Below the pieces are notes generated by a model, which saw only the letters and a list, made by a program, of their open reading frames with translations, was not told the origin of the DNA and did not search any database. A stretch of DNA of 64,000 nucleotides from a virus (taxonomy: Duplodnaviria; Caudoviricetes). The stretch is from positions 21,260-85,259 of IMG/VR virus record IMGVR_UViG_3300033171_000001. One strand, 5' to 3'. This document shows, in pieces, positions 8,692 to 58,895 of this stretch. Numbering within the stretch: the stretch's first letter is position 1; each line of letters opens with the position of its first letter. Position numbers and translations under genes: made by a program.

Positions 8692-9696
8692 ATGGGACGT
8701 AAAGCTAAAGGCATAGTAAATGATGACGGCCGCACTTGTACTAAGTGTGGCGAATTTAAGGCGTGGAGTGAGTTTAGTATACGTACCATAGGGACACGGG
8801 GGAAACAAAGTAAATGTAAATTATGTGTTAATACGTATTATGAAGAAAATAGAGATGTTATATTAAAGAATAAAAAAGAATATTATGAAGAAAATAAGGA
8901 TACTAGAAAGGAATATAACAAACAATATTATGAAGAAAATCGTGATGCTAAATTAGAATATAACAAACAATATTATGAAGAAAATCGTGATGCTATTTTA
9001 GAATATCAAAAACAATACTATGAAGAAAACAGGGATGCCAGAAAAGAATATGACAAACAATACTATGAAGATAAACGTGATGTTAAATTAGAAAAGCAAA
9101 AACAATATTATGAAGAAAATCGTGACGTTGTATTAGAACAGAAAAAACAATATAGTATCTCCCCTGCTAACTATGGAACATTTAAAAATCAATTAACGCC
9201 TTTAGAGTTCCCAAGAGAATCTAAGGAAGGATATTTAGAAGTTAAATGCGCTACATGCAGGAAATATTTCATTCCAACTAATATACAAGTGCAATGTAGA
9301 ATACAAGCATTAAATGGAAATATAACAGGGGAACACCGCCTCTATTGTTCAGATGCTTGTAAAGAATCCTGCTCTGTCTTTGGTCAAAGAAAATACCCCA
9401 AAGGCTTCAAGAAACCCTCCAACCGGGAATATTCAACTGAATTTCGCAACATGATCCTTGAACGAGATAACTACACCTGTCAAGTATGTAATAATAAATT
9501 TGACAAGAAACATTTGCAAGCACACCATATAACTCCTATTATATGCAGTCCCATGGAACAAGTAGATATAAAAAACGGAATATGTATTTGTAAAGAATGT
9601 CATATAAATCTTCATCTAACACAAGAAGGTATTACTTACGCAGAGTTGATCAAGGCCGGTAAGAGCAAAGAAGATAAAGATGAAAACGAAGATTAA
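8692..9696 (+). CDS. HNH endonuclease, copy 1 (N-terminal Zn finger, 7 x 15-aa repeats, middle Zn finger, HNH)
   Basis: CTKC..CKLC, (YYEENRD...KQ)x7, CATC..CSDAC, CQVC..HH..N..CKECH. Confidence 0.9.
   Translation: MGRKAKGIVNDDGRTCTKCGEFKAWSEFSIRTIGTRGKQSKCKLCVNTYYEENRDVILKNKKEYYEENKDTRKEYNKQYYEENRDAKLEYNKQYYEENRDAILEYQKQYYEENRDARKEYDKQYYEDKRDVKLEKQKQYYEENRDVVLEQKKQYSISPANYGTFKNQLTPLEFPRESKEGYLEVKCATCRKYFIPTNIQVQCRIQALNGNITGEHRLYCSDACKESCSVFGQRKYPKGFKKPSNREYSTEFRNMILERDNYTCQVCNNKFDKKHLQAHHITPIICSPMEQVDIKNGICICKECHINLHLTQEGITYAELIKAGKSKEDKDENED
8836..9150 (+). repeat. 7 tandem 45-bp coding repeats
   Basis: 315 nt = 7x45, each encoding a YYEENRDxxxExxKQ-like unit. Confidence 0.9.
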
Positions 9697-9708
9697 AAGG
9701 AAACTTAA

Positions 9709-10908
9709 ATGAAAAAACACTATGTGGTAGACACAAACGTCCTCATTGATTCCCCTCATGCAATTGAATCTCTCAGAAACGGTAAGGACGGCGGCGATAC
9801 CAATGAGGTTTACCTGCTTGAAACGGTACTTAATGAGGTAGATGGCCTGAAGAGGAAAACCACCCTCAAATCCATAGTTCAAAAAGTAGTAGCAAACCTT
9901 CATTCCCTTGCAGACGAAATAAATTACTTCGAAAATGAAACTGTTTCTACGAATATTTCTGAAAATCCAGATGACAGAATCCTAGCTGGTGTATTAATGG
10001 CCGAAGAGGAGTATGACGCTCCGATGATTCTATTAACCAATGATAGAGTGCTTCAACTAAAAGCTAATTTTCTTGGTATCCAGGTTGAAGAGTTCAAGGA
10101 CAGTATTCCCTTTAATAATGAGGAAGATATTAACACTGGATTTGTTGAGTCAAAAGATGATTTTAAGTACGTTAACACTTTCTGTTTTGATAATGGGATT
10201 CTTCTTTTTAATGGTAAGGATGAAATCAAACCGATTGGATATGAGAATAAAGTATGGGCAACCAAACCTAAACACTATACACAGAACGCCGCATTTGAAC
10301 TTCTCCTGAATGATACTATCGATCTAGTCACGCTTTCCGCTAGTGCCGGTATGGGGAAAACCCACTGTGCGGTTGCTTCGGCTCTTGATGCTGTTCTGCA
10401 AAAGAAGAAGTATGAAAAGATTTATATATTTAAATCAATAGAAGATGTTGGGCCATCTATTGGTTTCCTTCCAGGGACTATGGAAGAGAAAATCGACCCC
10501 TACATGCGCTACATAAAGAGCATGTTCTTTAAACTGCACAATATGAGAAAGGGCAATGGAAAAGTATTTCTTGATGATAAAACATTGAATCCAGAATTTG
10601 TCGAAATCCTTCCTTTGACATATATTAGAGGCATGAACATAGATAACGCCTTTGTGATTATTGATGAAGCACAAAACATATCCCGTCTAAATATGCGATC
10701 CTTGCTTACTCGTATGGGGGATAACGTGAAGTGTGTCGTATGCGGCGACCCTAATCAAGTAGATAATCCTAATCTAAGCAAAGAGAATAACGGCCTCAAT
10801 TGGTGTGTCAAGTTGTTCAGTGGAGCAGATAACTATGGACATATTCAATTAGGCGGCAAGAAAAGTCGTGGACCTATATGTGATTTGGTTCTTGAAAAGA
10901 AATTATAG
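9709..10908 (+). CDS. phoH: PIN-domain PhoH-family ATPase
   Basis: N-terminal VDTNVL..PDD..TND PIN domain; GMGKT Walker A, IGFLPG, IRG, IIDEAQN, GDPNQ. Confidence 0.92.
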   Translation: MKKHYVVDTNVLIDSPHAIESLRNGKDGGDTNEVYLLETVLNEVDGLKRKTTLKSIVQKVVANLHSLADEINYFENETVSTNISENPDDRILAGVLMAEEEYDAPMILLTNDRVLQLKANFLGIQVEEFKDSIPFNNEEDINTGFVESKDDFKYVNTFCFDNGILLFNGKDEIKPIGYENKVWATKPKHYTQNAAFELLLNDTIDLVTLSASAGMGKTHCAVASALDAVLQKKKYEKIYIFKSIEDVGPSIGFLPGTMEEKIDPYMRYIKSMFFKLHNMRKGNGKVFLDDKTLNPEFVEILPLTYIRGMNIDNAFVIIDEAQNISRLNMRSLLTRMGDNVKCVVCGDPNQVDNPNLSKENNGLNWCVKLFSGADNYGHIQLGGKKSRGPICDLVLEKKL

Positions 10909-10924
10909 AAAAATAAGATAAAAC

Positions 10925-10953
10925 TTGACTTTTTGGTTAAAATTTGATATAAT
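10925..10953 (+). promoter_or_regulatory. Sigma70-type promoter for the portal gene
   Basis: TTGACT-17 nt-TATAAT. Confidence 0.8.
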
Positions 10954-11003
10954 TCGTGGAAATTCGCGTTTATATCAAATTTTAACCAAATAAAGGATAA
11001 CCA

Positions 11004-12614
11004 ATGAGCACCCCTAATAAAATGACTGATGAAATGACCTTCGATCAGCGTCTTGAATATCTGAATACGCTTCCAGACGACCAATTAAGCCAATATCAAT
11101 TTGCTTTGGTTCTGAATCCAAGTGACCCTACCACCACAGCTACTTCCATGCGTACATTCGGAACACCTGACTACAGTTCTTATGGAATAAGGGAATTACA
11201 ACAGGAACTTTGGCACGCCTTTCAGACAAACCCACAAATTTCGTCTGCCGTAAGAGACTACGTTGGACGAATGACCGGATATGGGTTTGAAGTTTATTCA
11301 GAGATTCCAGAAATTCAAGAAAAGATTGATGAAATCACGTATGATTATAGAAACCGCCTTCATTCCTTGCTTCCTAAGTACGTAGGCAGGGCGCAGATTG
11401 AGGGGGAGCTATTTCTTGTATTAACTCTTCATAATGACGGATTTGTTGAAATTGATTTTCGTGATCCATCCACTCTTGATGTTATTGGATATGATAATAG
11501 TGGAATTATTTATCATCCAAGAAAACCCGCCATGCCCATTGCCTATCAGTTCAAGTATAGTGGAGATGATCTACAGGACCATTATGAGCAGATTCCTAGT
11601 ATTTACGTAGCAAGGTATCCTGAACTTGTTAATATTCTTAAACAGCATGTTAATTATAATCCTGAATATATCAAAGAAAGTGTTGCCTCTACTAAGAAGT
11701 ATAATTCAGTTGGAGGGTTTAAGCGTTTTGTTGTTCAATGGGATAAGGGATGGATGACTGCTCGTAATATTTCATATATTCGCACGGTCCTCACCTGGGT
11801 GAATCTATACGAACAGTTGAAAACATACGAAATTAACCACAAGAAGAGTTCCGGTGCATATCTTTGGGTTCTTGAGGCAGAAGACATTAAGACGTTTAGA
11901 GCGTGGATGGCTTTGACTGAAGAACAACGTGCTGAAACTGGTATTATGAAGAAGAAAGATGCAGGGGGAACACTTGTTGTTCCTCCTGGCATGAAGTTGA
12001 AGGCTATTAGTCCCACTCTTCCTAAAATATCCGATTCAGATACGGATGTGCTAGATTTTGTAACGTCTGGACTGAACACTACCGAGGACAGTTTGATTGG
12101 AAGAAGCAATCGAAACAAATCCTCCCTTTCACAGACGCACGGAACGCAACGGGATAGAACTTTCGATGAAATAGCTAATTTCGAGCGATTTCTAAAGTTC
12201 GACCTTTGGGGTAATGTGTTTTTCCTTGCTTCGGCTGTATCAGATTTTAAATACGTACATAAAATTAAAAAAGCAGTGGATTTTAATAAAAGTAAGAAAC
12301 CTGTTTTTAAATTCAAATCATTCAATGCGGAAAGACTTATCGGCGTTACCTTCCCGCAATCTCACGCCGCCGGAAATGAGGAGACTGTTCGCGCTCTTCT
12401 TGGAAGCAAGCACGGTCCTGTTACTAAGTCCCTTGGTATTCCTGCAAGCAAGGTTGGAGAACTGCTGGGCTTTGGTGATTATCGTAAGTTGCGGTTACAG
12501 GCGGCAGAAGAGCAGGCGGCGTACCCTGAGCTAACATACGGGATGGACGAGGAAGCCGTTCAGGAGAAAGAGGAGGCTGAGAACTCAGTTACGACTCAAG
12601 AGAACGAGCAATAA
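11004..12614 (+). CDS. Portal protein
   Basis: 536 aa, synteny between TerL and protease/capsid, portal-like GE.FL segment. Confidence 0.7.
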   Translation: MSTPNKMTDEMTFDQRLEYLNTLPDDQLSQYQFALVLNPSDPTTTATSMRTFGTPDYSSYGIRELQQELWHAFQTNPQISSAVRDYVGRMTGYGFEVYSEIPEIQEKIDEITYDYRNRLHSLLPKYVGRAQIEGELFLVLTLHNDGFVEIDFRDPSTLDVIGYDNSGIIYHPRKPAMPIAYQFKYSGDDLQDHYEQIPSIYVARYPELVNILKQHVNYNPEYIKESVASTKKYNSVGGFKRFVVQWDKGWMTARNISYIRTVLTWVNLYEQLKTYEINHKKSSGAYLWVLEAEDIKTFRAWMALTEEQRAETGIMKKKDAGGTLVVPPGMKLKAISPTLPKISDSDTDVLDFVTSGLNTTEDSLIGRSNRNKSSLSQTHGTQRDRTFDEIANFERFLKFDLWGNVFFLASAVSDFKYVHKIKKAVDFNKSKKPVFKFKSFNAERLIGVTFPQSHAAGNEETVRALLGSKHGPVTKSLGIPASKVGELLGFGDYRKLRLQAAEEQAAYPELTYGMDEEAVQEKEEAENSVTTQENEQ

Positions 12615-12641
12615 AAAATTAAAAATAATACAAAATAATGC

Positions 12642-12670
12642 TTGACATTTACTTGCGTTTCTGGTATAAT
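12642..12670 (+). promoter_or_regulatory. Perfect sigma70 consensus promoter for the head genes
   Basis: TTGACA-17 nt-TATAAT preceded by an A-rich UP-like tract. Confidence 0.88.
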
Positions 12671-12710
12671 GCCACAAATGGTATGTGACTCAAAACTAAA
12701 GGATAAACAT

Positions 12711-13898
12711 ATGAGCAAAATTAAAACTAAAATAAAAGATAAAGATAAATTCAAAGCAGTACCTAAGTCTGCTCTATCTTTTGTTACTGCGGATGACGCG
12801 CATTGTTCTTTTGCCGCCGAAGAGGGTAATGAAGATAATTTCAAGATGGTGGGGTATAGCGGCGGTATTATTGCTAACCACTGGTATTGGGGGAATCTCA
12901 TCTTTGATCTCAAGGGGTTTAAATTCAAAGATAAACATCCTATCCTTTGGGCGCATGATGATTGGAATATGGATAATATTCTTGGAGTATCAACTAAGCC
13001 TAAAATAACTGACGAGGGTTTAGTATATACTGATAAAGAAGTTACTTTTGTTGATAATGAAAAGGTATCTCAGTTTAAGGAATATTCTAGAAAGGGAGTT
13101 CCCTTTCAAGCATCTATTCGTGGAAATCCTACTCGTATTGAATATATTGAGGAGGGGGTTTCCGTAGACGTTAATGGGATAAAATTTAATGGACCCGGAC
13201 ATATTTGGCGCGAAACGGAGCTTATGGAATGTTCCGTTTGCCTGTTCGGGGCTGATAACAACACTTCTTCAGCAGTATTTAGTGAGGCGGGTGGAGACAC
13301 GGTTGAATTATCGGCCGATATTTTTATTTCCACTGAGAATGAAAATGACAATCAACAAAAAACGGAGAAAGTTATGGACTACATTACTTTTAAGAAAGAA
13401 CATCCAGAAGAGGCGCAGAAGTTCGCTGAGCGCGTTCTTGAGGATGCTCGGACTAAGTTCGATGCTGAAAAGCGCGATCTTATGAAAGAACATGAGGCTA
13501 AAGTTACTGAGTTCTCTGCCAAGGTAGAAGAACTGGAAGAGAAGGTCAAGGCTTTTGAAAAGGAGCAGGTTCTTGCCGAGGAAAAGGCGCGTAAGGAATT
13601 TGCCGATAAGACTTGGAATGAGAAGTTGAAGGAAGCCGACATTCCTGAGCGTCTACATGAAAAGATTAAGGCTTTTGTTTCCGCTGAAAAGTATGTTGGT
13701 GAGAATGGTTTTGACGAAGAGGCTTTTGTAGCCGCCGTGGATAAGGAAATCGAATTTTGGGCTGAGACTAAGGAAGAGGCTAAGATTCAGGGTTCTGGTA
13801 GTTTTACCAAGAAGCCCGCTGGTGAAAATGAATTTACTGATGCCGCTGCCGAAGCTCTTGCAGAAGAAATGCTTGCGCTGGTTGGCGGGAATAAATAA
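12711..13898 (+). CDS. Prohead protease with C-terminal scaffold region
   Basis: HK97-protease-like PILWAHD, QASI and ECSVCLFGAD segments, then a charged coiled coil; AAGGA SD before ATG 12711. Confidence 0.75.
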   Translation: MSKIKTKIKDKDKFKAVPKSALSFVTADDAHCSFAAEEGNEDNFKMVGYSGGIIANHWYWGNLIFDLKGFKFKDKHPILWAHDDWNMDNILGVSTKPKITDEGLVYTDKEVTFVDNEKVSQFKEYSRKGVPFQASIRGNPTRIEYIEEGVSVDVNGIKFNGPGHIWRETELMECSVCLFGADNNTSSAVFSEAGGDTVELSADIFISTENENDNQQKTEKVMDYITFKKEHPEEAQKFAERVLEDARTKFDAEKRDLMKEHEAKVTEFSAKVEELEEKVKAFEKEQVLAEEKARKEFADKTWNEKLKEADIPERLHEKIKAFVSAEKYVGENGFDEEAFVAAVDKEIEFWAETKEEAKIQGSGSFTKKPAGENEFTDAAAEALAEEMLALVGGNK

Positions 13899-13909
13899 GG
13901 AGTTCCGTT

Positions 13910-14593
13910 ATGGCTATTACCATTCTTGATGTAAATACCTACGGTGACACCCCTCAAATTAATCATGGTGTGCAGTACGACCAGCCACACCTCTATACTG
14001 ATGGGTTCCCGAATGATGCCACTATGTTTGTGTCCCTCAAAATGAAGGCCGGTTTCGGTTATATCGAAGCCGGTACTGTCGTTGCCGAGGATGCTAATGG
14101 GGAATTTGTTCCCTACGTTCCTACTACCTACACTGATAACGTAGCCGTTTCTCCGCTGACTGCTAATGCGGTTTACACTGAGGACACCGTTACTGTTTCT
14201 GAGGCTGAGTCCGGTAAATTTGCAAAGGGTGATCTTCTTATCCTTGCCAATGACGATCCTCTCTATTTTGAAGGCGGCGCAATCACTGACATTACTGTTA
14301 CTGCTGGTGTTGCTACCATTACCTTCACTAATGCTATTGACTCCGCTGAGTACACCACTGCCAAGAACGCCCATGTCTACGTGAAGTCCGGTGCTTCTGG
14401 CAAGTTCTCTACTGCGGTTGCTATTCTTGACAAGCCCGTTGATACTGGTGTTGGTTCTTCTGCTAAGGGCGCACAGGCTTCTGCCATTATTGCCAACGCT
14501 GTTATCTACGCTGCCCCCCTGTTTAATCTTGATGCCGCTGCTCTTGCTTCTCTCGGTGTAGTGAAGTTCGGCAACCGTGCATATATTAAGTAA
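13910..14593 (+). CDS. Head decoration/stabilisation protein
   Basis: Ala/Thr-rich, IEAGTVVA motif, between protease and capsid as for lambda gpD. Confidence 0.6.
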   Translation: MAITILDVNTYGDTPQINHGVQYDQPHLYTDGFPNDATMFVSLKMKAGFGYIEAGTVVAEDANGEFVPYVPTTYTDNVAVSPLTANAVYTEDTVTVSEAESGKFAKGDLLILANDDPLYFEGGAITDITVTAGVATITFTNAIDSAEYTTAKNAHVYVKSGASGKFSTAVAILDKPVDTGVGSSAKGAQASAIIANAVIYAAPLFNLDAAALASLGVVKFGNRAYIK

Positions 14594-14604
14594 AGGAGTC
14601 TACT

Positions 14605-15858
14605 ATGCCTAAAGGTAATGTAATTCCAGAGCTGCATCTTAGCACTCTGAACAAGCTCATTGAGAAGGCGCAAACCCCGCCCTCTATGGTGCTTTCCAAT
14701 AAGTTCCCTGTGTCCAACGCTCTTTCTGATACCATTGAGTGGGAAAGCCGCTATGGTTCCGCTGGCATGATTCCTTTCGTTGCCCGTGGTTCCCGTGGAC
14801 CTTCCTTCGGTGATGATGGTGTTGGCAAGCACTCCATGAAACCCGCTTACTTCGCTCAAAGCAAGTTCTTTGGCGAAGAGTTTCTTAACAACCTCCGCGA
14901 ACCCGGAACTGCACAGGCTAAACGCTCTGGTCAGGCTGAGATTGCGCGGGCCTCTCAGCGTATGCTTTATGGCGTGCGGAAACGGCGCGAGTTCATGTTT
15001 GCCAAGATGCTTTTTGATGGCAGTATGGACTACCACATTAAGGCTACTTCCAAGGCTCCTGAGTTTGCTTCCGTGTCTTGGGGTATACCGACCTCTCATC
15101 AGGTAACTCTCGGTGCTACTGCTCGTTGGTATGGGAGCAGCAGTGAAATAGCTGATCGTGATGTTTTTGGTGATGTTTTCGACGCTAAAAATACAATGCA
15201 GGATTCTCTTGAAATGGAGACTATGGGACTAGAGGCGTATATGAATAGCCGCCTTCTCCAGTCGCTGATTAAGGATTCCGGTATTCGCGATCTTGCGCAG
15301 ACGCAGAATATCTCCGAGGCACAACTGGTGAACAACGCCCCCGGCGCACTTGCTCAGATTCTCGGCTTCGGTTCTGTTAATGTGTATGATGCGGCTTATC
15401 CCGTGTCTTCTCCTCTTGCACAGTCCTACACTTCCGGAACTACTATTTATGTAGTTGACCCGTCCGACTTTGTTGTTGGCGGTGACGTTTGGATTAAGAA
15501 CAGCGTGGACGGCGCAGCCGGTCCTCGTTCCAAGATCACTGCGGTTAACCATGAAACCGGGGCCATCACCCTTTCCGCCGCTCTCACTGGTGCTACTGGT
15601 GTCGCCTTTAAGTCTCAGCTGATGATGCGGAAGTTCTATCTGGACAGCAACAAGATTGTCTTTATGGTTCCCAAGGTTGATGGTCAGCCTGTTGCGGAGA
15701 TGATGCAGGCTCCTCATGGTATTCCTTCTACTTATGGTATACGTATGCGTAGTTTTATTAAGGAAGCCCCTGATGGAGTGGAGTTGTATACGGAAGATTT
15801 ATGTCTTCCTGTGCTGTACTATCCTGCTTCAGTGTACCAGCTTACGGTCGGCCTCTAA
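14605..15858 (+). CDS. Major capsid protein (lambda gpE-like, with an insertion)
   Basis: 417 aa, high-expression codon usage, gpE-like segments (RREFMFAKML, LPVLY). Confidence 0.8.
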   Translation: MPKGNVIPELHLSTLNKLIEKAQTPPSMVLSNKFPVSNALSDTIEWESRYGSAGMIPFVARGSRGPSFGDDGVGKHSMKPAYFAQSKFFGEEFLNNLREPGTAQAKRSGQAEIARASQRMLYGVRKRREFMFAKMLFDGSMDYHIKATSKAPEFASVSWGIPTSHQVTLGATARWYGSSSEIADRDVFGDVFDAKNTMQDSLEMETMGLEAYMNSRLLQSLIKDSGIRDLAQTQNISEAQLVNNAPGALAQILGFGSVNVYDAAYPVSSPLAQSYTSGTTIYVVDPSDFVVGGDVWIKNSVDGAAGPRSKITAVNHETGAITLSAALTGATGVAFKSQLMMRKFYLDSNKIVFMVPKVDGQPVAEMMQAPHGIPSTYGIRMRSFIKEAPDGVELYTEDLCLPVLYYPASVYQLTVGL

Positions 15859-15875
15859 GAGTAATTGAATAACGG

Positions 15876-15905
15876 AGGGAGGGGATTGTGATATATCCCC
15901 TCCCT
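15876..15905 (+). terminator. GC-rich hairpin without a U-tract after the capsid gene
   Basis: AGGGAGGGGAT / ATCCCCTCCCT 11-bp stem, 8-nt loop. Confidence 0.65.
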
Positions 15906-15927
15906 GCTTAAAATAAAAGGAAGCACA

Positions 15928-16272
15928 ATGAAAATTCGAGTAAAAACTACATTGTCCCTACCCACTGGGATTTTTGCTAAAGATGCAATCATAGAAGGGA
16001 AGAAGGATGAGATTGATGAATTTTTGCTTAAGGAAATTGAGATGAAATCAGGAACAGTGGAGGTGCTTGAGGATGATGAAGAAGTTGAAGCCCGTCCTGT
16101 TCTAGATAATAATGACCGTGGTAATAAAGATTCGGATGCTAAGGAAGATGTAACTACGAATACTCCTAATCTTATTGAAGAAGTAGTTGAAGTAAAAGAA
16201 GAAGTAAAAGAAGACCCCGTTCCAACAAAGAAGCCCGCTGCCAAAAAGAAGACTATTCATAAAAAGAGATAA
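15928..16272 (+). CDS. Acidic/Lys-rich hypothetical head-region protein
   Basis: ORF with SD right after the capsid gene. Confidence 0.6.
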   Translation: MKIRVKTTLSLPTGIFAKDAIIEGKKDEIDEFLLKEIEMKSGTVEVLEDDEEVEARPVLDNNDRGNKDSDAKEDVTTNTPNLIEEVVEVKEEVKEDPVPTKKPAAKKKTIHKKR

Positions 16273-16303
16273 CCACATTTAGTAGGTATAGAAGGGAAAA
16301 ACA

Positions 16304-16741: not shown

Positions 16742-16743
16742 TT

Positions 16744-17370: not shown

Positions 17371-17394
17371 ACGAATAGAAAACAGGTAGGAGAC

Positions 17395-17778: not shown

Positions 17779-17817
17779 ACTTTTTGTTAAGTATATGAAG
17801 CAAGGATTTAAAGCACA

Positions 17818-18578: not shown

Positions 18579-18579
18579 G

Positions 18580-19053: not shown

Positions 19054-19077
19054 ACTGTTCTAGTTAAAGGAGGCATT

Positions 19078-24591: not shown

Positions 24592-25449
24592 ATGGCAAAG
24601 GCTAAAGGTATAATAAATGAGGAAGGCCGCACATGCACTAAGTGTGGTGAGTTTAAAGCATGGGATGAGTTTAGCAATGGGAAGCAAGGGATTAGGGGGA
24701 AGCGTAGTCAATGTAAAGGGTGTGATAAACAGTATACTAAGAAATACTATGAAGAAAATCATGATGCTAAAAAAGAATACAGTAAACAATACTATGAAGA
24801 AAATCGTGATGTTAAATTAGAAAAGAGAAAACAATATTATGAAGAAAATCGGGATATTGTAATAGAAAAGAGTAAACAATATTATGAAGAAAATCGTGAT
24901 ATTATAGTAGAAAAGAAAAAACAATATAATATTTCTCCTGCTAAATATGAAGTCTATACAGATAAATTAACACCTCTTGAATCTCCAAGAGAGTCTAAAG
25001 AAGGGTATTTAGAAGTAAAATGTGCCACGTGTAAGAAATACTTTATTCCAACTAATCAACAAGTACAGGATAGAATAAGATCATTAAATGGGAATGCAAC
25101 AGGAGAAAGGAGACTCTACTGTTCCGACTCTTGTAAAGAATCCTGTTCTGTATTCGGAAGACGTATATATCCAAAAGGCTTCAAAAAACCTAATAATAGA
25201 GAATATTCAATTGAATTTAGACAAATGATCCTTGAACGTGACAACTACACCTGTCAAGTCTGTAATAACCGATTCGATAAGAAACATCTACAGGCTCACC
25301 ATATAACACCTGTAGTATGCTCGCCAATGGAACAAGTAGACATTGATAATGGCATTTGTGTTTGTAAAGAGTGTCACGTTAATCTACACCTAACACAAGA
25401 GGGAATCACTTATTCTGAATTAGCTAAAGCTGGTAAGGAGAAGGATTAA
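24592..25449 (+). CDS. HNH endonuclease, copy 2 (4 x 15-aa repeats)
   Basis: Same architecture as copy 1 with high identity; repeats at 24745-24924. Confidence 0.9.
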   Translation: MAKAKGIINEEGRTCTKCGEFKAWDEFSNGKQGIRGKRSQCKGCDKQYTKKYYEENHDAKKEYSKQYYEENRDVKLEKRKQYYEENRDIVIEKSKQYYEENRDIIVEKKKQYNISPAKYEVYTDKLTPLESPRESKEGYLEVKCATCKKYFIPTNQQVQDRIRSLNGNATGERRLYCSDSCKESCSVFGRRIYPKGFKKPNNREYSIEFRQMILERDNYTCQVCNNRFDKKHLQAHHITPVVCSPMEQVDIDNGICVCKECHVNLHLTQEGITYSELAKAGKEKD

Positions 25450-32408: not shown

Positions 32409-32711
32409 GTGTCTAATAAAGTATTAAATAAAGTAATAGAAACATTATCCAAAATGTTTAAAGACGATTTAGGTAAACTATCGCAGATGCGTATTTTAAG
32501 CGCGTTTGCGATAGTGGTTCCTATCTTAGTCTGGACCGTTTATGTATTTGTAAATGGGTGGCAAGATTTTAACGAATCCTTTGCATTCCTTATTTTAGGT
32601 GCTTTAGGTAGTAAGGCCGCACAAAAATGGGCAGAAAGTAAGAATAGTAGTACGAAATCCAATACCGAAGTTCCCCCTGAACTTAATGCCCCATCTGATA
32701 AAAAGGAATAA
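32409..32711 (+). CDS. Holin
   Basis: Two hydrophobic segments, KLSQMR..S motif, charged tail; first gene of the lysis cassette. Confidence 0.6.
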   Translation: MSNKVLNKVIETLSKMFKDDLGKLSQMRILSAFAIVVPILVWTVYVFVNGWQDFNESFAFLILGALGSKAAQKWAESKNSSTKSNTEVPPELNAPSDKKE

Positions 32712-32716
32712 TATTT

Positions 32717-33136
32717 ATGTTTATTTTTTCAGCGTTCCTTTCATTTTTTGGGGGCAAGAAGCAAGGTGTAATTGTTATTCTACTAGGGATTGTTATTGCT
32801 TCCCTAGGCGTTCTCTATATGTGGGAAAAGACTTCTCATAGTAATACGAAAGTAGAACTTGCTAACAAAGTATCAGAACTATCTACTATAAAAAATATGA
32901 ATAAACAACTAGAACAGGATCAGGAAACAAAACAACTTGTTATTGATGGACTACAAAACCAAGTTGTTTCATATAAAAAAGACTTTGAAGAATATAGAAA
33001 GCAATATGATAAAATGCTTGAGATTTGCGAGAATACAAAAGAGATAGATAAAGAAGATTCTAAACTGAAAGTATTAGATGAGAAGTCAAATGAAGAATAT
33101 GTTAAAGCAATCAATTCTGTTCTTGGTTTTAACTAG
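32717..33136 (+). CDS. i-spanin (Rz-like)
   Basis: N-terminal TM helix followed by a periplasmic coiled coil. Confidence 0.7.
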   Translation: MFIFSAFLSFFGGKKQGVIVILLGIVIASLGVLYMWEKTSHSNTKVELANKVSELSTIKNMNKQLEQDQETKQLVIDGLQNQVVSYKKDFEEYRKQYDKMLEICENTKEIDKEDSKLKVLDEKSNEEYVKAINSVLGFN

Positions 33137-33407
33137 CCTACTCTTTATTAATGGGTGTTGGCCTAAAATAGTAGAACACACTATTACAGTAACTAGAGTT
33201 CCGGAACGAGTTGAGCCGCCCACTGATCCCAAGTATATCGAGTTGCCAGAAGATTCTCATTTAGGTTCAAAGAAATCTGCAATGATTATATGGAAGAATT
33301 TTCTTGAAGCGGAGAGGGCAAGAAAAGAAGCAAAAGCCGCCTTCTTTGCATATGATTCTCAAGTTAAAAAATTGATAGAAAAGGAAAATCATAACGATGA
33401 AAACTAA
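33099..33407 (+). CDS. o-spanin (Rz1-like lipoprotein)
   Basis: Signal peptide with lipobox-like LLFINGC, Pro-rich mature part, overlaps the i-spanin end. Confidence 0.7.
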   Translation: MLKQSILFLVLTSLLFINGCWPKIVEHTITVTRVPERVEPPTDPKYIELPEDSHLGSKKSAMIIWKNFLEAERARKEAKAAFFAYDSQVKKLIEKENHNDEN

Positions 33408-33825
33408 ACATTTCAATATAAAAGAATTAGTTAATCCGAATATTTATAAAAGATATGGGAACTCCTCGTGGAAATTCCTCAATCCTCTTATTTTGAACGT
33501 TATTGACACACTTAGGGAAGGTATGGGTTCTCCGATTATTATCAATAATTGGCAATGGGGCGGCAATTATCAGGATAGTGGTATGCGAGAAGTAGATTCT
33601 TCCATAGGAGCATTATATTCTATGCACAAGTTTGGTTGTGCGATGGATTTAAAATTCCCCGATTCCTCTGTTGATGTAGTTTACGATTACATTCTTGATA
33701 ATGAAGAATATTGGTATAGTATTGGTGTTAGGCGTTTGGAAAATATCAAACATACACCTACTTGGTTGCATATAGATTGCGCTAATACTCATATAGAAAA
33801 CAAAATCCACATATTCAATGTTTAA
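33397..33825 (+). CDS. Endolysin, peptidase M15-like
   Basis: R.......SMHKFGCAMD and WLHID Zn-ligand motifs. Confidence 0.85.
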   Translation: MKTKHFNIKELVNPNIYKRYGNSSWKFLNPLILNVIDTLREGMGSPIIINNWQWGGNYQDSGMREVDSSIGALYSMHKFGCAMDLKFPDSSVDVVYDYILDNEEYWYSIGVRRLENIKHTPTWLHIDCANTHIENKIHIFNV

Positions 33826-33850
33826 CAGATGTGGTAAAGGTAGGTGCGAC

Positions 33851-34042
33851 ATGGACCCTTTTGATATGTTAAAGGATAGTTTTGATAAACTATCTGAAAA
33901 GGTTTATACGTTGGTTGAAGATATTTCGGGAATAAAAGCGCAGCAAAAAATAATGTGGGCAGTGCTGATGCTTTTTATATCTGGGTCCGTTGGAACCTTT
34001 TTCTTCATCATTCATACGTTGATAAAGACTCACATGGGGTAG
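33851..34042 (+). CDS. Small coiled-coil plus TM protein (possible second holin or antiholin)
   Basis: N-terminal coiled coil and a C-terminal hydrophobic helix. Confidence 0.5.
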   Translation: MDPFDMLKDSFDKLSEKVYTLVEDISGIKAQQKIMWAVLMLFISGSVGTFFFIIHTLIKTHMG

Positions 34043-50027: not shown

Positions 50028-50035
50028 ATTGACTC

Positions 50036-50230: not shown

Positions 50231-50239
50231 TTAGTTCTC

Positions 50240-52301: not shown

Positions 52302-52315
52302 ACCTAAGTTTCCTC

Positions 52316-53196
52316 TTAATCTTTGTTTTCATCTTTATCTTCGTTGTTGCTTTTACCGACTCTACTTAACTCTGCGTAAGTTATTCCTTCTTGTGTTAGG
52401 TGGAGGTTGATGTGACACTCTTTACATACACAAATTCCATTTTCAATATCTACTTGTTCCATTGGACTACATACAACAGGAGTTATATGGTGTGCTTGTA
52501 GGTGCTTCTTGTCAAAGGATTCACTGCATACTTGACAGGTGTAGTTGTCACGTTCAAGGATCATAGCTCTAAATTCTGGTTGGTACTCTCTGTTTGAAGG
52601 TTTTTTGAATCCCTTGGGGTATTTACTTTTTTATAGACAGAACAGGATTCTTTGCAAGCATTGGAACAGTAGAGTCTGTTTTCTCTTTTATTTTCTTTTA
52701 ACGCCTTTATTCTATTTTGTACTTGTTGATTAGTAGGAGTAAAATACTCTCTGCAAGTAGCACATCTTACTTCTAAATAACCATCTACTGTTTCTCTAGG
52801 AGATTCAAAAGGTGTTAGTTGGTCTTTATATATTTCGTATTTAGCGGGCGAAGTTTTATATTGTTTTTGATATTCTGCTATAACATCACGATTATCTTCG
52901 CGATACTGTCTTTGATATTCTAATTTAGCATCACGATTTTCTTCGTAATATCGTCTTTGTTGTTCTAATTTAACATCACGATTTTCTTCGTAATACTGTC
53001 TTTGATATTCTGTTATAACATCACAATTTTCTTCACGATATTTCTTACTATTCTGCTTAGCACACATTTTACATTTATTCTGCTTCCCTCTTGTTCCACT
53101 CTTACTATTACTAAACTCACTCCACACCTTAAATTCACCGCACTTAATACAAGTACGTCCCTCCTCGTTTATTATACCTTTAGCTTTGCGTCCCAT
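52316..53196 (-). pseudogene. HNH endonuclease, copy 3, split by a single-base frameshift
   Basis: ORFs 52561-53196 and 52316-52564 join into one paralogue by a -1 shift at the A6 run (T6 at 52627-52632 on +); 4 repeats at 52861-53040. Confidence 0.85.
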
Positions 53197-53204
53197 AACA
53201 AACT

Positions 53205-53420
53205 TTAAGTATTATTTTTAAATATACTGATATGAAAGTTGTAGTCCACCGTCTCCGCATCCCCAACATCTGTTCCAAAGGTTATTACTCCGGTTTTGAA
53301 GGAAAGGTACACATAAGGCACAATATCTCCTACCATAAAAGAACCAATTGGCTCTTCCAAAGTAACGTTATAAAAAAACACCCCGTCTTTCTCGGCTTCC
53401 ATCTTTGTATAACTAAACAT
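53205..53420 (-). CDS. Hypothetical protein
   Basis: ORF with GGGGAG SD. Confidence 0.55.
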   Translation of the reverse strand: MFSYTKMEAEKDGVFFYNVTLEEPIGSFMVGDIVPYVYLSFKTGVITFGTDVGDAETVDYNFHISIFKNNT

Positions 53421-53471
53421 AGCTCCCCTAAAGCCCCCTCCACCATTCTTAGTAGAGAGGGCTGTTAACCA

Positions 53472-54623
53472 CTACTTATTCAGTGCAAACTCAAGCACAG
53501 CGACCTTAAAATCTTCCAGGCTATCGAACTCATCGGCAAATACATCGATCTCATTTTCTTCGCAGTATGCATCAACATCTTCCATCGTGGCCAGGGCGTT
53601 AATCTTCTGTACCACAGGATTTTCATCGCCTTTGGAAGCACGGGACCGAGAACGGGAGGGCTTTTCAACCGTCTTCTCTTCCTTCTCTTCCTTCTTCTCT
53701 ACCTCAAAAGGAACAGAATCGTCATCATCTTCTTCAGGACGCATACGCTTACCAAATGCGTCATCAAGCTGCTCATCCGTGGATTCCTTGCTGGCAGGGG
53801 TAGTCACCATAGAACCTTCCATCATTTCCTTAATCTCGTCATAAGAAGCGATATTGAATACCCACTTACCAAGAGGCTTCACCATTTCAAGTTCTTCATC
53901 AGAAACTTGATATGCTTCCATTGTGCCATCTTCAAGAGGAAGTTCCCGGTCAAGAAGTCCCACGATCTTGAAATCAGGAGCAGACTGCTGTCCCTTCTTA
54001 CGTGCCTCTTCATCCACAATCCACTCATAGTTAATAATACGCCCATCGTCAGCGTCCATATAGAAGATCGGCTCTCCACGACGATCCTTTGCGTAGGCAT
54101 CAATGTTCTCTTCAATATAGAACGTAGCCATGTCGAAGTATTGAACACCCTTGTCAGAGGATTCCTTATCCTTCCTATCCACAACAGAATAAAGCGCACG
54201 AGCCTTCGGCTGAAGCGGCTTTACCACGTTGGTATAATATTCCTTGTTCTCCTTGCTACCCTTTTCACCAGGGAAGTTGAACCGAACCTCATCATAGGCA
54301 TCACAAATAGGGCACCTTTCACCAAAACACCTCGGGCAAACAATAGTCTCCCGGTTAGGTCCGACATTCACATGCTGTTTATAAATCAGTCGCCAATTGG
54401 GTTCCCCCTTCCGAAGATTAGCAAAATTCTCCTCCGACATAAACGGAATCATGTCGATGAAGTTCTGCCCATTACGATTCATATACATAGGTAGTACAGC
54501 AAACTCTTCACTCCACTTATTACGCTTTGCTCCCGCTTGATCAGAAGCCGCCGCCTCAACCGCAGCCTTGTCTTTCTCAGGGTCAAAACCAGCAAACATA
54601 TTCCGACGATTAATCCTACTCAT
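53472..54623 (-). CDS. Single-stranded DNA-binding protein (gp32-like)
   Basis: HVNVG..CPRC..RCPIC Zn motif, aromatic OB core, long acidic C-terminus. Confidence 0.7.
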   Translation of the reverse strand: MSRINRRNMFAGFDPEKDKAAVEAAASDQAGAKRNKWSEEFAVLPMYMNRNGQNFIDMIPFMSEENFANLRKGEPNWRLIYKQHVNVGPNRETIVCPRCFGERCPICDAYDEVRFNFPGEKGSKENKEYYTNVVKPLQPKARALYSVVDRKDKESSDKGVQYFDMATFYIEENIDAYAKDRRGEPIFYMDADDGRIINYEWIVDEEARKKGQQSAPDFKIVGLLDRELPLEDGTMEAYQVSDEELEMVKPLGKWVFNIASYDEIKEMMEGSMVTTPASKESTDEQLDDAFGKRMRPEEDDDDSVPFEVEKKEEKEEKTVEKPSRSRSRASKGDENPVVQKINALATMEDVDAYCEENEIDVFADEFDSLEDFKVAVLEFALNK

Positions 54624-54641
54624 AATTCTAATTCTCCCTTT

Positions 54642-54929
54642 CTATTCTTTTTCTGCAACACTGTTTAACATATCAAAATACTGTTCCACATAACCAACTG
54701 TAGGAAACCAAAAATCACAATTCAAACAATCATTACACGGCACTTCTCCTGAATCCCTGTTACGTTTAGTGTTCTTATATTCATTCACACAACCATCACA
54801 AGTGGCATCCAAATTAATGGCCTTATTAGCAAACACAGGAAGCAAGGAACCGTAGTTATAAGGATCGTCCTCTTGCGCTATGATTGATAGAAATGTCTCA
54901 TAAAACTCAATTTTCTCTAAATCAGTCAT
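54642..54929 (-). CDS. Hypothetical Cys-rich protein
   Basis: CDGC..CNDC..C; start assigned at MTDLEK. Confidence 0.5.
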   Translation of the reverse strand: MTDLEKIEFYETFLSIIAQEDDPYNYGSLLPVFANKAINLDATCDGCVNEYKNTKRNRDSGEVPCNDCLNCDFWFPTVGYVEQYFDMLNSVAEKE

Positions 54930-55380
54930 TTTTGCTTCTACGCCTCTGCATTGTTTTATGTAGTTGAGTCTGTGTTTCTTCCAGGGGAACATCTGACCAA
55001 TACTGCGAAAGAAAAAGAGAAACCATGTTACCGAGAGCGGAACGCTTGGCTTGAAGTGAATTTAACGTGGCTGAATTATAACTGACTTCCTCGTTAATGT
55101 CAAGCAATTTCTCGGATAACTTTTGATATTCCTCATTTGTCTTGATAAACGCATCCGTCTGAGCAACCGTGGGAGCCTTGTCAAAACCAAGTTCTTGCCA
55201 ATTCTTGCTTACATTCAAGGTCAACCGGGCAACCAAGGTTTCAAGTGCCAGTTTAGCCCTGTCACGCTTTGATACGGCCTTTGTGTGTCGCTCCCCATAC
55301 TCCTGAAGGTCGGCAGCTACTGTTTGCAATTCCTCATCCAATTTGAACTTGTTAATATGAAGTTTTTCAACAAGACTCAT
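54922..55380 (-). CDS. UvsY-like recombination mediator
   Basis: Helical LDEEL...PT......I...Y...LQAK..L pattern, adjacent to SSB and RecA. Confidence 0.55.
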   Translation of the reverse strand: MSLVEKLHINKFKLDEELQTVAADLQEYGERHTKAVSKRDRAKLALETLVARLTLNVSKNWQELGFDKAPTVAQTDAFIKTNEEYQKLSEKLLDINEEVSYNSATLNSLQAKRSALGNMVSLFLSQYWSDVPLEETQTQLHKTMQRRRSKND

Positions 55381-55731
55381 TTAATTCTCCTTCGTATTCG
55401 GTTCAAGATAAATAATATTCTTTCCTTGCTTTGTTGCTGAAAGAATCTCCCTGGCAACTCCCCTGGATTCCTTCCAACCACCCAGACAAAGAACCCAAAG
55501 TTCATCACAAACATCAAGAAACTTCAAATCTCGGTCAAGCCAAAAATCAGCATCCGTTTGAAACTCATGCGGCATCCAATCCGCAATAGGGTGGGAGTGT
55601 GTGATAGGGCTGAATACATTATAGCCATCCATCATTAATTCTGCCGTGACTCGTGTGACTTCCGCGTAGCGGTAAACCATAATTTCCGGTGATTCGTGTG
55701 TGTAGGGACAGGCCAAATAAATTGTTTTCAT
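55381..55731 (-). CDS. DUF1937 / nucleoside deoxyribosyltransferase-like fold protein
   Basis: IYLACPY, VFSPITHSHP, W...D..FL..CDELWVL..GW.ES.GV..E. Confidence 0.75.
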   Translation of the reverse strand: MKTIYLACPYTHESPEIMVYRYAEVTRVTAELMMDGYNVFSPITHSHPIADWMPHEFQTDADFWLDRDLKFLDVCDELWVLCLGGWKESRGVAREILSATKQGKNIIYLEPNTKEN

Positions 55732-55919
55732 TATTCTTCTCCTTTAACTTTAATTTCAGTTACACTTAGAAGTCCTTCATCTAATATTTCCGATAGAGCC
55801 ATTCCTGTTTCACATTTCCAATCTACATTCTCAATATCGTTATAGGCAAGTTCTTCTGTTTCATACAATTCATAAAAACCCATATTAAATTCACATTCAA
55901 CTTTAAATACAGTTTTCAT
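55731..55919 (-). CDS. Hypothetical protein
   Basis: Coupled small ORF. Confidence 0.5.
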   Translation of the reverse strand: MKTVFKVECEFNMGFYELYETEELAYNDIENVDWKCETGMALSEILDEGLLSVTEIKVKGEE

Positions 55920-55940
55920 TTTTACTTCCTTTACTTCTTT

Positions 55941-58568
55941 TTATTGTTTAGGTTTCCAAATTCCATTCTCATCTTTAACCCACTCTACCAAATCATACCA
56001 AGACTGATTAGGTTCTGGACTCATTTCAACTTCCACTGCCAGCTTCTTTTTTAGAAATGGAAACTGCTGAAACGTCCAATCAGTCATACCATATTCCACA
56101 AGATTTAAAAAGTCCTGCACCTCATTTTTGTGAATAGATGCTCCATTACTATCATGTACCTGTAGCATCAACCGGGACTTCATTTTTTGTTTTCTTGCTT
56201 CTTCATTGATATAACAAGCAGAAGTAAGCAAACAAAAAGCTCCCGCATTTTGAGAAGGTGTGTTGAGACATTTATTTTTGCTCATCAACCCTCTGCGCCT
56301 ATAACCAGAAGGAGTCTCAACATAACCATTCTTCAAATAAACATCCAATGTGTCTGTTTGATATTGCCTCCACACATGAAATTTATCCCAATACTCTGCC
56401 TCCTTGCGTTCCCAATAATTGATAAAATCTCTTTCAGACTTTATTCCGTTTATTCTCAAATGCTCTTCAAGCGTTATCCCATCTCCTGTCAAAACCTCTT
56501 CGTTCATCAACCATTCCCAAGTCTTCTTCGCACATGCCCAATAATTTGAACCGTAGGCTTGTGCAAAGGATATGCCTGATTTGGAAAAGTTTCTGATCTT
56601 CTTTGCTACCTGATCTGGATGAAAGTCAAACCAGAATTGCGTGAACTCACTGTGACAATCAACTCCAGGTGTATTTAACATTTCAAGGAAAACAGGATCG
56701 TTGCAAATAAATGCCAGCAACCATAATTCCAAAGCTGAATAATCAATCTCTGCAAAATGACAATCCTTATCCGCAATAATTCCTCTTCTGATAATCTTCT
56801 TTTGAAACTCGTCGTGCTTGCTGACATTTTGAAGATTAGGACTATTGCAGGAGGTTCGCATGGTTTTAAGCATCACCATGAAAGACGGATGCACTCTGCC
56901 GTTTACCGCATAGGTTTCAAACTGTGATATATATGTATTTATTACTTTATCAATTTTACGAAGTTCCAACAGTTTATCTGCACACGCTCCTTTCAATTCG
57001 TGCATAGACTCTTTATCAACAGAAGCCATTCCTCCCTTAGTTTCTTTGACAACTTCATGATTTCCGTGGTCAAAGAAAAGAAGCCTCAGATCAGGAGATG
57101 ATCCATAATTCGGCAGCCGTCCTTCTTTTTCAACAAACACCTTAACCTCTTTGGTGTTATTGAGTTCTTCTAGAATTAAATCATACTGTTCCTGAAGCTC
57201 TTTCTTTGCCTTGGAAAAATAATCAAGATCAACTCTAACTCCTTCAGCATGATACCGTGCCATTTCCTTGGCTACTTTGTTATACCAGAAAACCGCCTCT
57301 CTTGGTTTGAACTTTCTTTTTGAATCACAATGAAAGTATTTATATTGTTCTGCAAAAAGATAGGCATTAAGCAAGGAATCAAGTCCGTTGTAAAGAAGAA
57401 GTTTAGAAAGAGGAAATTCGTGAATATAGTTTAACCCATTCTCCTGCTTACGCTCAAAATACATCTTTGCTTCTGCGCCATACCCCAACTCACCTTCATA
57501 CATCAAAGCAAGATGTTTTAAACCTCTAGTGCCAGGAGTACAGTTTATTTGATTCTGAACCACCATGGAATCCCAATAAATCCCCTTAGTGTCGGTTTCA
57601 AAACCAACCAATTCCCAACTATATTCCAAATTTAGATTATGTGCTATCTTGTTTATCTTTTCATTGGAAAGATAGTTAATCCACAGTTTCTTAATATGTT
57701 CCTGCTGCTCTGCTGTGAAATGGTTTAATCTTTGATAAGGAAGTGCGTAGGCTTTTTGTTCTTTTCTTTTATAGTTGCTAATATCATAAATAGGAGCAAA
57801 AGAAATAGATTCAATACGGGAACCTTCAATAAAAATATCGGTTCCGGTTCCTTCATAGTCATGTACGCACCATTCAGGACAAGTATTGTTTAGATGTTCC
57901 AGAGCTGAAACCACTTCTTCATAGTTATAAAGACAAATTACTTTATCTCTATGCTTTATTCTTTCTTTGATAGGTTTATCATAATTTTTAGCAATCTCTG
58001 CAATATCCTTTCTCCAAAGAGCCATCCAAAACATATCATCACTGTTTTGAAGAGCCGCAACGGGGTGGTGTATTGCGATAACATTGCAGTTATATTCGTA
58101 ACAAGGAATAAGAAAATCCCGAAATGTCTCAACACTTATTCCGGTTATTTGTTCTTTTCCTCTCTTCTCACCAAATACAGAATAAATAGCAGTCGAGCCT
58201 AAACAGACTATAAGAGTAGGTTTTAGTCGTTTGACTAATTTCTTAACTCGATTTCGACATTTATCTACATTCTTTTTTAGTTTCTGAGAATCGGTTTCCT
58301 TTCCGTAACACCCAATAGCACTCGTTACCCAACAATCATTAAATAGATCAATCCCTACTGCTTCCAGTTCCCCTGCAAATAGTTGTGTTGCTTCTCCCGC
58401 ATGTAGATTACTTACCCTGTCTTGTTGGGCATTAGGGGCTTTTGATAGAATTAGAATTCTCTTATTCCCTTTGCCAAATACTCCCATTTGCGGGGTACCG
58501 GCTTCTTTGTAAAGGCCGCAATTTCCGCAATCTGGTTTGGTGCTTTCTATAGCCGAGAAAAAACCCAT
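55941..58568 (-). CDS. polA: Family A DNA polymerase with an N-terminal uracil-DNA-glycosylase-like domain and 3'-5' exonuclease
   Basis: CGNC..C..C..HP UDG4-like domain; DYEGT/HN/DSM/YNGLD exo motifs; RTSCNSPNLQN, DYSALE, R...K..F...YG, QVHD. Confidence 0.9.
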   Translation of the reverse strand: MGFFSAIESTKPDCGNCGLYKEAGTPQMGVFGKGNKRILILSKAPNAQQDRVSNLHAGEATQLFAGELEAVGIDLFNDCWVTSAIGCYGKETDSQKLKKNVDKCRNRVKKLVKRLKPTLIVCLGSTAIYSVFGEKRGKEQITGISVETFRDFLIPCYEYNCNVIAIHHPVAALQNSDDMFWMALWRKDIAEIAKNYDKPIKERIKHRDKVICLYNYEEVVSALEHLNNTCPEWCVHDYEGTGTDIFIEGSRIESISFAPIYDISNYKRKEQKAYALPYQRLNHFTAEQQEHIKKLWINYLSNEKINKIAHNLNLEYSWELVGFETDTKGIYWDSMVVQNQINCTPGTRGLKHLALMYEGELGYGAEAKMYFERKQENGLNYIHEFPLSKLLLYNGLDSLLNAYLFAEQYKYFHCDSKRKFKPREAVFWYNKVAKEMARYHAEGVRVDLDYFSKAKKELQEQYDLILEELNNTKEVKVFVEKEGRLPNYGSSPDLRLLFFDHGNHEVVKETKGGMASVDKESMHELKGACADKLLELRKIDKVINTYISQFETYAVNGRVHPSFMVMLKTMRTSCNSPNLQNVSKHDEFQKKIIRRGIIADKDCHFAEIDYSALELWLLAFICNDPVFLEMLNTPGVDCHSEFTQFWFDFHPDQVAKKIRNFSKSGISFAQAYGSNYWACAKKTWEWLMNEEVLTGDGITLEEHLRINGIKSERDFINYWERKEAEYWDKFHVWRQYQTDTLDVYLKNGYVETPSGYRRRGLMSKNKCLNTPSQNAGAFCLLTSACYINEEARKQKMKSRLMLQVHDSNGASIHKNEVQDFLNLVEYGMTDWTFQQFPFLKKKLAVEVEMSPEPNQSWYDLVEWVKDENGIWKPKQ

Positions 58569-58577
58569 ACCTGTCCT

Positions 58578-58895
58578 TTAATCTTCTTTGTCGATATTGT
58601 TGTTGTCTTCGTTTGTGCTGTTACCGACCTTGATCAACTCTGCGTAAGTAATACCTTCTTGATTTAAATGAATATTGATATGACATTCCTTGCAAACACA
58701 AATACCGTTTTCAATATCTACTTGTTCCATTGGACTGCATACACAAATTCCATTTTCAGTGTCTACCTGTTCCCTTGGACTGCATACAACAGGAGTTATG
58801 TGATGAGCTTGCGGGTGTTTCTTGTCAAAGGTTTCACCACACTTAGTACAAGTGCGACCCTCCTCGTTTACTATACCTTTAATTTTACGTCCCAT
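58578..58895 (-). CDS. HNH endonuclease, copy 4 (internally deleted mini-form with a 15-aa duplication)
   Basis: MGRKIKGIVNEEGRTCTKCGE joined directly to TFDKKH..HH..(VCSPxEQVDxENGIC)x2..CKECH. Confidence 0.85.
   Translation of the reverse strand: MGRKIKGIVNEEGRTCTKCGETFDKKHPQAHHITPVVCSPREQVDTENGICVCSPMEQVDIENGICVCKECHINIHLNQEGITYAELIKVGNSTNEDNNNIDKED

Follow-up and report, generated by a model that had tools for sequence, protein, structure and literature searches.

Large phages commonly carry HNH homing genes in several copies. The mob genes of T4 and the I-HmuI-type enzymes with NUMODs join an HNH nuclease to modular, repeat-like DNA-targeting regions; such genes are placed between conserved genes, are patchily distributed and occur as multiple paralogues, some of them decayed (review PMC2988022). 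Here we describe a family of HNH genes with the same traits, in a stretch of 64,000 nucleotides from a tailed virus of the Caudoviricetes (hereafter the window: bases 21260-85259 of the 85,259-bp virus record IMGVR_UViG_3300033171_000001). In contrast to the T4 and I-HmuI-type enzymes, the window proteins carry a CxxC..CxxC zinc ribbon, an array of 15-residue helical units and a Cys-rich middle module, with no NUMOD; their activity is predicted.

Parts of these proteins have counterparts elsewhere. I-TevIII, from the nrdB intron of phage RB3, also combines an HNH nuclease with a zinc-finger DNA-binding domain, and its dimer makes a double-strand break, a precedent for a non-catalytic part that oligomerises (PMC1865063). 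It differs in being intron-encoded and in having no helical repeat array described; we liken it by description, not by sequence. The zinc-ribbon HNH nicking enzymes of phage gamma and GVE2 (PMC3592412, PDB 5h0m/5h0o) provide the nearest solved HNH domain and the same pairing of zinc ribbon and HNH. However, they are about 120-130 amino acids (aa) long, have neither array nor middle module, and are conserved beside the terminase, whereas here the site next to the large terminase gene terL is empty in relatives.

The N-terminal half has counterparts in two cultured phages, in gp74 of Mycobacterium phage Wheeler ('endonuclease VII') and in gp78 of Corynebacterium phage PSonyx ('HNH endonuclease'): both have the same N-terminal ribbon followed by 15-residue units of the Y..ENxEK type, but end in other C-terminal domains. 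In the HsdS TAEL repeats of EcoR124I/II and in the I-TevI linker, repeat number or linker length reportedly sets the spacing of two DNA contacts and is said to be changeable by unequal crossing-over. These proteins are of another family and fold, and their likeness to the present array is by analogy.

Four related loci beside conserved genes

We find that the genes very probably belong to a family of HNH homing endonucleases. An earlier note, made from the DNA letters of the window, had described a four-member HNH family with a 45-bp repeat unit. Using a listing of open reading frames (ORFs) and Tandem Repeats Finder to locate copies and arrays, we recovered the starts it had given, at 8692 (+), 24592 (+), 53196 (-) and 58895 (-), and at each of them the common N-terminus M[GA][RK]xKGI.N..GRTC.KCGE and the HNH C-terminus. 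A six-frame search of the entire 85,259-bp record yields these four copies and no more.

8692-9696, plus strand: copy 1, an intact HNH gene of 334 aa between terL and the PIN-PhoH gene
8830-9144, plus strand: copy 1 array, seven units of 45 bp or 15 aa, consensus KQYYEENRDxxLExx
24592-25449, plus strand: copy 2, an intact HNH gene of 285 aa
24739-24918, plus strand: copy 2 array, four 15-aa units

The unit numbers of the note (seven, four, four and zero) also hold: Tandem Repeats Finder counts 7.1 units in copy 1 (8836-9153), 4.1 in copy 2 (24743-24927), 3.9 in copy 3 (52858-53034) and 0 in copy 4. So do the neighbours it had named. Copy 1 is flanked by the large terminase and PIN-PhoH genes; copy 2 lies in the tail module, among tape measure, minor tail, tail-L and NlpC/P60 genes, with a 184-aa tail-module gene on one side and the gene of a 109-aa minor tail protein on the other; copy 3 is next to a UvsX/RecA-like recombinase and copy 4 next to a family A DNA polymerase. 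Some qualification is needed. There are indeed four related loci, but the intact members are only copies 1 and 2, copy 3 being frameshifted and copy 4 a remnant. Likewise, the repeat is present in the window but is not peculiar to this genome: it is rather a family-wide module.

Occupied and empty sites in related phages

Two relatives, G001 (70.7 kb) and G002 (83.9 kb, with terminal repeats, complete), share the gene order of the window, and their proteins are about 60-75% identical to those encoded there. In both, the site between terL and PhoH is empty, with a 12-nt spacer, and so is the tail site of copy 2, with a 15-nt spacer. At the recombinase site, G001 has a very divergent member with two zinc ribbons and G002 has none; in G002, a member with four tandem zinc ribbons adjoins polA. 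Two further sites are empty in the window and occupied in relatives.

15859-15927: empty site after the major capsid gene; a family member is found there in G001, G002 and contig L020
12615-12641: empty site between a 536-aa gene and the next gene, a 27-nt gap in the window; G001 and G002 have stop-ridden HNH remnants there

Free-standing homing endonuclease genes typically leave just this pattern of presence and absence. In a tree of the core region, window copies 1-3 group with two metagenome sequences (support 89/89), and the same-site copies of relatives are not sisters; the tree therefore fits spread within the genome together with repeated invasion of the same sites. The selfish spread beside conserved genes that the earlier note had proposed is thus upheld by the empty sites in relatives, the members elsewhere, the decayed remnants and the close kinship of copies 1-3.

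We propose that free-standing HNH homing-endonuclease genes colonised intergenic sites beside conserved phage genes. The four loci would then represent stages of invasion and decay: copies 1 and 2 intact, copy 3 recently frameshifted, and copy 4 cut down to a mini-HNH. Altogether, family assignment and mobility are well supported, and endonuclease activity is predicted from the protein sequences.

Copy 1 directly follows terL, and phage HNH genes often adjoin terminase genes (PMC3592412). It might hence be a packaging HNH associated with the terminase, of which HK97 gp74 and the phage gamma HNH are examples, and not a selfish gene. We hold this to be highly improbable: G001 and G002 have no HNH at the terL site although their terL is 68% identical, and copy 1 is paralogous to copies in the tail and replication modules. 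Both the site pattern and the tree argue against a packaging role.

A family member in another setting was found on contig L021 (2517-5558), where the gene of the 321-aa protein P0010 lies between a gene for the N-terminal half of an SNF2 protein and a Helicase_C gene: the helicase is split around the nuclease gene.

Nuclease domain and protein architecture

Pfam, profile, structure and invariant columns all identify the C-terminal ~80 residues as an HNH domain. At the Pfam HNH cutoff (PF01844, 21.4 bits), copy 2 (25.0) and the copy 3 fragment (28.3) score above and copy 1 (20.0) just below. The family profile matches the HNH protein of GVE2 (5h0m) at E 6.8e-7. Superposition of the HNH fold with VIA-align gives 5h0o_A at Z 8.2, with a root-mean-square deviation (rmsd) of 3.8 Å over 85 aligned residues, and McrA (6ghc) at Z 7.5; the Foldseek match of the domain is weak (E 2.6e-3). 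Residues C221, C224, H236, H237, D250, C258 and H266 are invariant in 40 relatives, in which C261 and H262 are at least 90% conserved. The catalytic His-His pair, the Asp/Asn, the distal His and the two CxxC zinc knuckles of the HNH are present in copies 1-3.

A search with the full protein returned 197 matches, with the order zinc ribbon, variable array, Cys-rich middle module, YPKGFK linker and HNH. Other relatives have only the middle and HNH core, with NUMOD3 repeats upstream in place of the array. The order of ribbon, array and nuclease is kept in 24 of 25 HNH relatives. Against the PDB, the zinc ribbon has a weak match in Hpy99I (Z 5.2), and the middle module matched nothing by Foldseek or VIA-align. 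Neither NUMOD3 (PF07460, at E <= 0.1) nor any other NUMOD was matched by Pfam in the window proteins. In these proteins both the ribbon and the middle module are basic (net charge +5 to +7 and +8, respectively), and the array is neutral to acidic (-4 in copy 1). Copy 1 DNA has no match among cultured phages; in the cultured-phage collection the window proteins have no full-length match, only partial ones to the N-terminal module or the HNH domain.

In our model, an intact protein is built of four parts: a basic CxxC..CxxC zinc ribbon, a rod-like α-helical array with 15 residues per unit, a middle module that is Cys-rich and basic, and a ββα-Me HNH nuclease. We infer that the middle module and the zinc ribbon bind DNA and that the HNH domain cuts beside the middle module. 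The array would act as a long helical connector in which each unit, if entirely helical, spans about 22 Å; it would keep the zinc ribbon at a distance and may also pair with a second copy of the protein. The placement of the array between 'recognition' and 'cleavage', as the earlier note had it, does not stand: it separates the N-terminal zinc ribbon from a second basic zinc module beside the nuclease.

Copy 3, a frameshifted gene

Copy 3 consists of two ORFs on the minus strand, of 211 aa (53196-52561) and 82 aa (52564-52316).

52561-53196, minus strand: N-terminal fragment of copy 3, 211 aa, with the zinc ribbon, four units and the middle zinc module, then 23 out-of-frame codons
52867-53046, minus strand: the four array units of copy 3
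52627-52632, minus strand: A6 run, shortened in copy 3 by the loss of one base found in copies 1 and 2 (1-nt gap in the DNA alignment)
52316-52564, minus strand: HNH fragment of copy 3, 82 aa, Pfam HNH 28.3 bits

A -1 shift at the A6 run would give back ...YKKSKYPKGFKKPSNREY...; read in this way, the family sequence YPKGFKKPSNREY..MILERD returns. The HNH fragment keeps all catalytic and zinc residues, and its ATG, a conserved Met codon, overlaps the zero-frame stop of the upstream ORF (ATGA). The split sequence occurs on 19 contigs of JGI, ENA and Logan assemblies, all 100% identical. As these assemblies are separate, the frameshift is real, and a sequencing error is ruled out.

One may ask whether copy 3 still yields an enzyme. 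Ribosomes might shift by -1 at the A-run, or two separate pieces, a 211-aa binder and an 82-aa HNH made by ATGA stop-start coupling, might work together. The family sequence restored by the shift, the intact catalytic residues downstream, the stop overlapping the conserved Met codon and the fixation of the split in 19/19 contigs would all suit this. It is nevertheless improbable: the A-run contains no in-frame X XXY YYZ slippery heptamer (the zero frame is tat aaa aaa gta), and no stimulatory RNA structure lies downstream (minimum free energy -5.5 kcal/mol, z +0.97), on which grounds a programmed -1 ribosomal frameshift was rejected. Moreover, the same-site copy in G001 is a single ORF, and contigs that are 100% identical give no sign of selection; the sampled contigs of copies 3 and 4 alike have no variation from which to judge it. 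Given the lack of an in-frame heptamer and the unstructured downstream RNA, we read copy 3 as a recent pseudogene.

Copy 4, a mini-HNH remnant

In copy 4, a deletion fuses the first CxxC knuckle to the ..FDKKH.QAHH.. of the HNH motif, with a GTGAA microhomology at the junction in the DNA alignment. The second half of the zinc ribbon, the array and the entire middle zinc module are gone.

58578-58895, minus strand: copy 4, mini-HNH remnant of 105 aa
58691-58788, minus strand: diverged 45-bp tandem duplication in the HNH motif of copy 4, VCSPREQVDTENGIC / VCSPMEQVDIENGIC (Tandem Repeats Finder: 2.2 copies, 86% matches)

The duplication is unrelated to the array unit, despite its 45 bp, and adds 15 residues between the HH and the N of the motif; the HNH catalytic and zinc residues are present, but with this insertion between them. 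Copy 4 had been taken for the zero-repeat member of the family: it has no array, but it is a cut-down remnant and not a full-length member. Its sequence is identical in 9 further contigs. Since a minimal HNH domain of 76 aa can nick DNA (PMC3592412), residual nuclease activity of copy 4 is possible by analogy.

A helical array of 15-residue units

The array unit in the window is K-Q-Y-Y-E-E-N-R-D-x-x-L-E-x-x. We counted its composition over 910 units, extracted with the Asn of position 7 as an anchor.

Position 1: 87% basic
Position 3: 95% aromatic
Position 7: Asn (the anchor)
Position 8: 85% basic
Position 9: 86% acidic
Position 11: 86% aliphatic
Positions 10, 12, 14 and 15: variable

Conserved residues recur at positions 3, 7, 11 and 14, at intervals of 4-4-3-4, and form a 15/4 seam with a periodicity of 3.75 residues, as in right-handed coiled coils. 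The flank is basic (positions 1, 4 and 8) and the back acidic (5, 6, 9 and 13). In the family as a whole, most arrays are basic (median charge +1.5 per unit).

AlphaFold models built on family alignments have a predicted local distance difference test (pLDDT) score of 85.6 for copy 2; for copy 1, the first 170 residues were modelled and score 93. In them the array is helical throughout, at pLDDT 92-98 (about 98 for the copy 1 helix); DSSP interrupts the helix only at certain Asn residues and leaves one stretch of 44 residues unbroken. Against the PDB, Foldseek and VIA-align bring up only generic long coiled-coil helices, weakly (Z 5-6) and with very large rmsd. A long helix is thus modelled, as the earlier note had expected of its charged linker, but the array is not the classic single α-helix domain suggested there, a candidate we rejected for its conserved seam, aromatic at position 3 and aliphatic at position 11. 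The array looks rod-like in the models, not a seamless single α-helix, and the note's calculation of its length would be reasonable if the rod is straight.

Change in unit number

Copy 1 occurs as two alleles, of 319 aa with six units (5 contigs) and of 334 aa with seven units (6 contigs). Compared with contig L009, which carries the six-unit allele, the window differs over ~7 kb by nothing but a clean 45-nt indel.

8911-8955, plus strand: 45 nt absent from the six-unit allele; placement within units 3/4 is ambiguous

Assembly collapse is not fully excluded for this difference, yet each allele was assembled independently in several samples. Units 3 and 4 of copy 1 are the most similar adjacent pair (41/45 nt). 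The array also has a three-unit super-period of 135 bp, in which units 2 and 5 pair, and its unit 6 is closest to unit 2 of copy 2. From the allelic indel and the super-repeat, the array grows and shrinks by whole units, via slippage or unequal recombination. That the linker changes in length had been anticipated, and the two alleles in an otherwise identical 7 kb bear it out. Relatives have from 2 to 12 units and from 0 to 11 ribbons.

Two paralogues, G002:C1:1-1113 (-) and G001:C1:24504-25547 (+), have four and two tandem zinc ribbons, respectively, and few helical units. Judging by such sequences, there appears to be a trade-off between ribbons and helical units in the N-terminal part of the protein. 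An extreme zinc-ribbon array is seen in the metagenomic protein P0123 (769 aa), with 11 tandem CxxC..CxxC ribbons, no helical units and no Pfam domain.

Distribution of the ribbon and array module

A search restricted to ribbon and array returned 8,909 cluster representatives at E <= 1e-3. Pfam domains, counted over the best 149 of these 8,909, are as follows.

HNH: 30/149
HNH_5: 24/149
HNH_4: 7/149
GIY-YIG: 7/149
Endonuclease VII: 1/149
HTH_3: 3/149

PHROGs and BFVD agree with a nuclease-linked module, and giant viruses are included; Wheeler gp74 and PSonyx gp78 are cultured examples. We found no paper on the 15-residue array in the literature, which is not proof that none exists. The array is very common and apparently uncharacterised.

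Neighbouring genes

6720-8690: terL, upstream neighbour of copy 1
9709-10908, plus strand: PIN-PhoH gene, directly downstream of copy 1

The PhoH-like ATPase encoded at 9709-10908 (+) has an N-terminal PIN domain (PF13638 + PF02562). The 875-aa DNA polymerase (55941-58568, -) carries an N-terminal uracil-DNA-glycosylase-like domain (PF03167) fused to DNA_pol_A. It is 34% identical to its G001 counterpart vs 76% in G002, a difference which suggests that the polymerase gene was swapped out in one lineage. A block of small genes at 32409-34042 (+) reaches 75-95% protein identity to G001/G002, vs ~60-70% for most genes; it may have been recently exchanged or be strongly constrained.

What the array may do

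Homing genes, a four-part protein and a connector array together make up our best overall explanation, which we hold with moderate confidence. For the array itself, we see about even chances that it serves as an extended connector or stalk and does not read bases. Among three readings of the array, we rank the connector or stalk first, including possible coiled-coil pairing, then an array in direct contact with DNA, and a strict adjustable ruler last. The ruler, proposed in the earlier note, would be a rigid monomeric helix that sets the distance from the zinc-ribbon anchor to the cut, so that slippage of units moves the cut or retargets the enzyme. A long modelled helix, its place between ribbon and nuclease core in 24/25 HNH relatives and the existence of whole-unit polymorphism are what one would expect of it. 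There are parallels as well: in EcoR124I/II, the spacing of half-sites is said to be set by the number of helical repeats in the Type I HsdS, and the I-TevI linker reportedly acts as a distance determinant. The proposal is nonetheless doubtful, and comes last because a second basic candidate lies beside the nuclease, because six- and seven-unit alleles persist at one site, and because arrays are terminal in some GIY-YIG proteins. With a zinc module adjacent to the HNH, recognition is probably not confined to the far end; one unit, ~22 Å or 6.6 bp, would also change the face of the DNA, yet both alleles persist. In addition, the conserved Tyr/Asn/Ile seam is unlike a single α-helix.

That seam would be at home in a right-handed (15/4) coiled coil, which could dimerise the enzyme and pair two HNH sites for a double-strand break, its length being loosely constrained. 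15-residue repeats give right-handed coiled coils in VASP. The 4-4-3-4 spacing with its basic flank and acidic back, the weak structural matches exclusively to long coiled-coil helices, and the HNH enzyme I-TevIII, which dimerises through its DNA-binding domain to cut both strands (PMC1865063), all point this way. We still give this version of a stalk a small share of the probability: a plain coiled coil would not usually conserve Tyr, Asn and Lys-Glu so strictly over thousands of proteins, and the DSSP breaks at Asn suggest helix caps. A similarly modest chance falls to an array in which each unit contacts DNA, as in NUMOD3, so that unit number sets the footprint and positions 10, 12, 14 and 15 tune specificity. 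Relatives with the same middle and HNH core carry NUMOD3 repeats at this very place; like NUMODs, the module is common to HNH, GIY-YIG and endonuclease VII proteins, and in some GIY-YIG proteins it is the only other domain; variability is concentrated at the four positions named, and the arrays of the family are mostly basic. Those of the window are neutral to acidic, however, acidic residues are conserved at positions 9 and 13, and the AlphaFold rod is straight-looking and not a groove-tracking superhelix. Also doubtful, finally, is the broadest version, in which the array is a new modular nucleic-acid-targeting repeat whose unit number and positions 10, 12, 14 and 15 jointly set target length, spacing or sequence, and whose 45-bp slippage lets selfish nucleases of several catalytic families retarget quickly.

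Returning to the connector, several observations weigh against it. The median charge of +1.5 per unit fits DNA contact as well as a connector, and the coexistence of six- and seven-unit alleles at one site is difficult to reconcile with a rigid spacer of fixed geometry. AlphaFold readily assigns high confidence to long helices. Three GIY-YIG proteins consist of the nuclease and a terminal array of 7-10 units, with no ribbon, the array being the sole non-catalytic part; as it is terminal, with no second domain, it is not a spacer between two domains there. A pure linker role cannot, on these sequences, be general: in these GIY-YIG proteins the array must bind DNA, another array or a partner. 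More broadly, activity, target sites and oligomeric state are putative in our explanation.

Homing endonucleases serve as models of selfish-gene spread and as a source of genome-editing parts. The interest of this family lies in the common 15-residue array, in the variation of its length by whole units within a clonal background, and in a set of variants ready for experiments. The window is a compact natural series, with seven-, six- and four-unit versions, a frameshifted copy and a minimal HNH, and the relatives supply empty target sites; the role of a very common repeat module is thereby made directly testable. Should repeat number set neither spacing nor footprint, this would be an ordinary multi-copy HNH family. 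Should it set either one, the array would offer a simple and evolvable way of retuning nuclease targeting.

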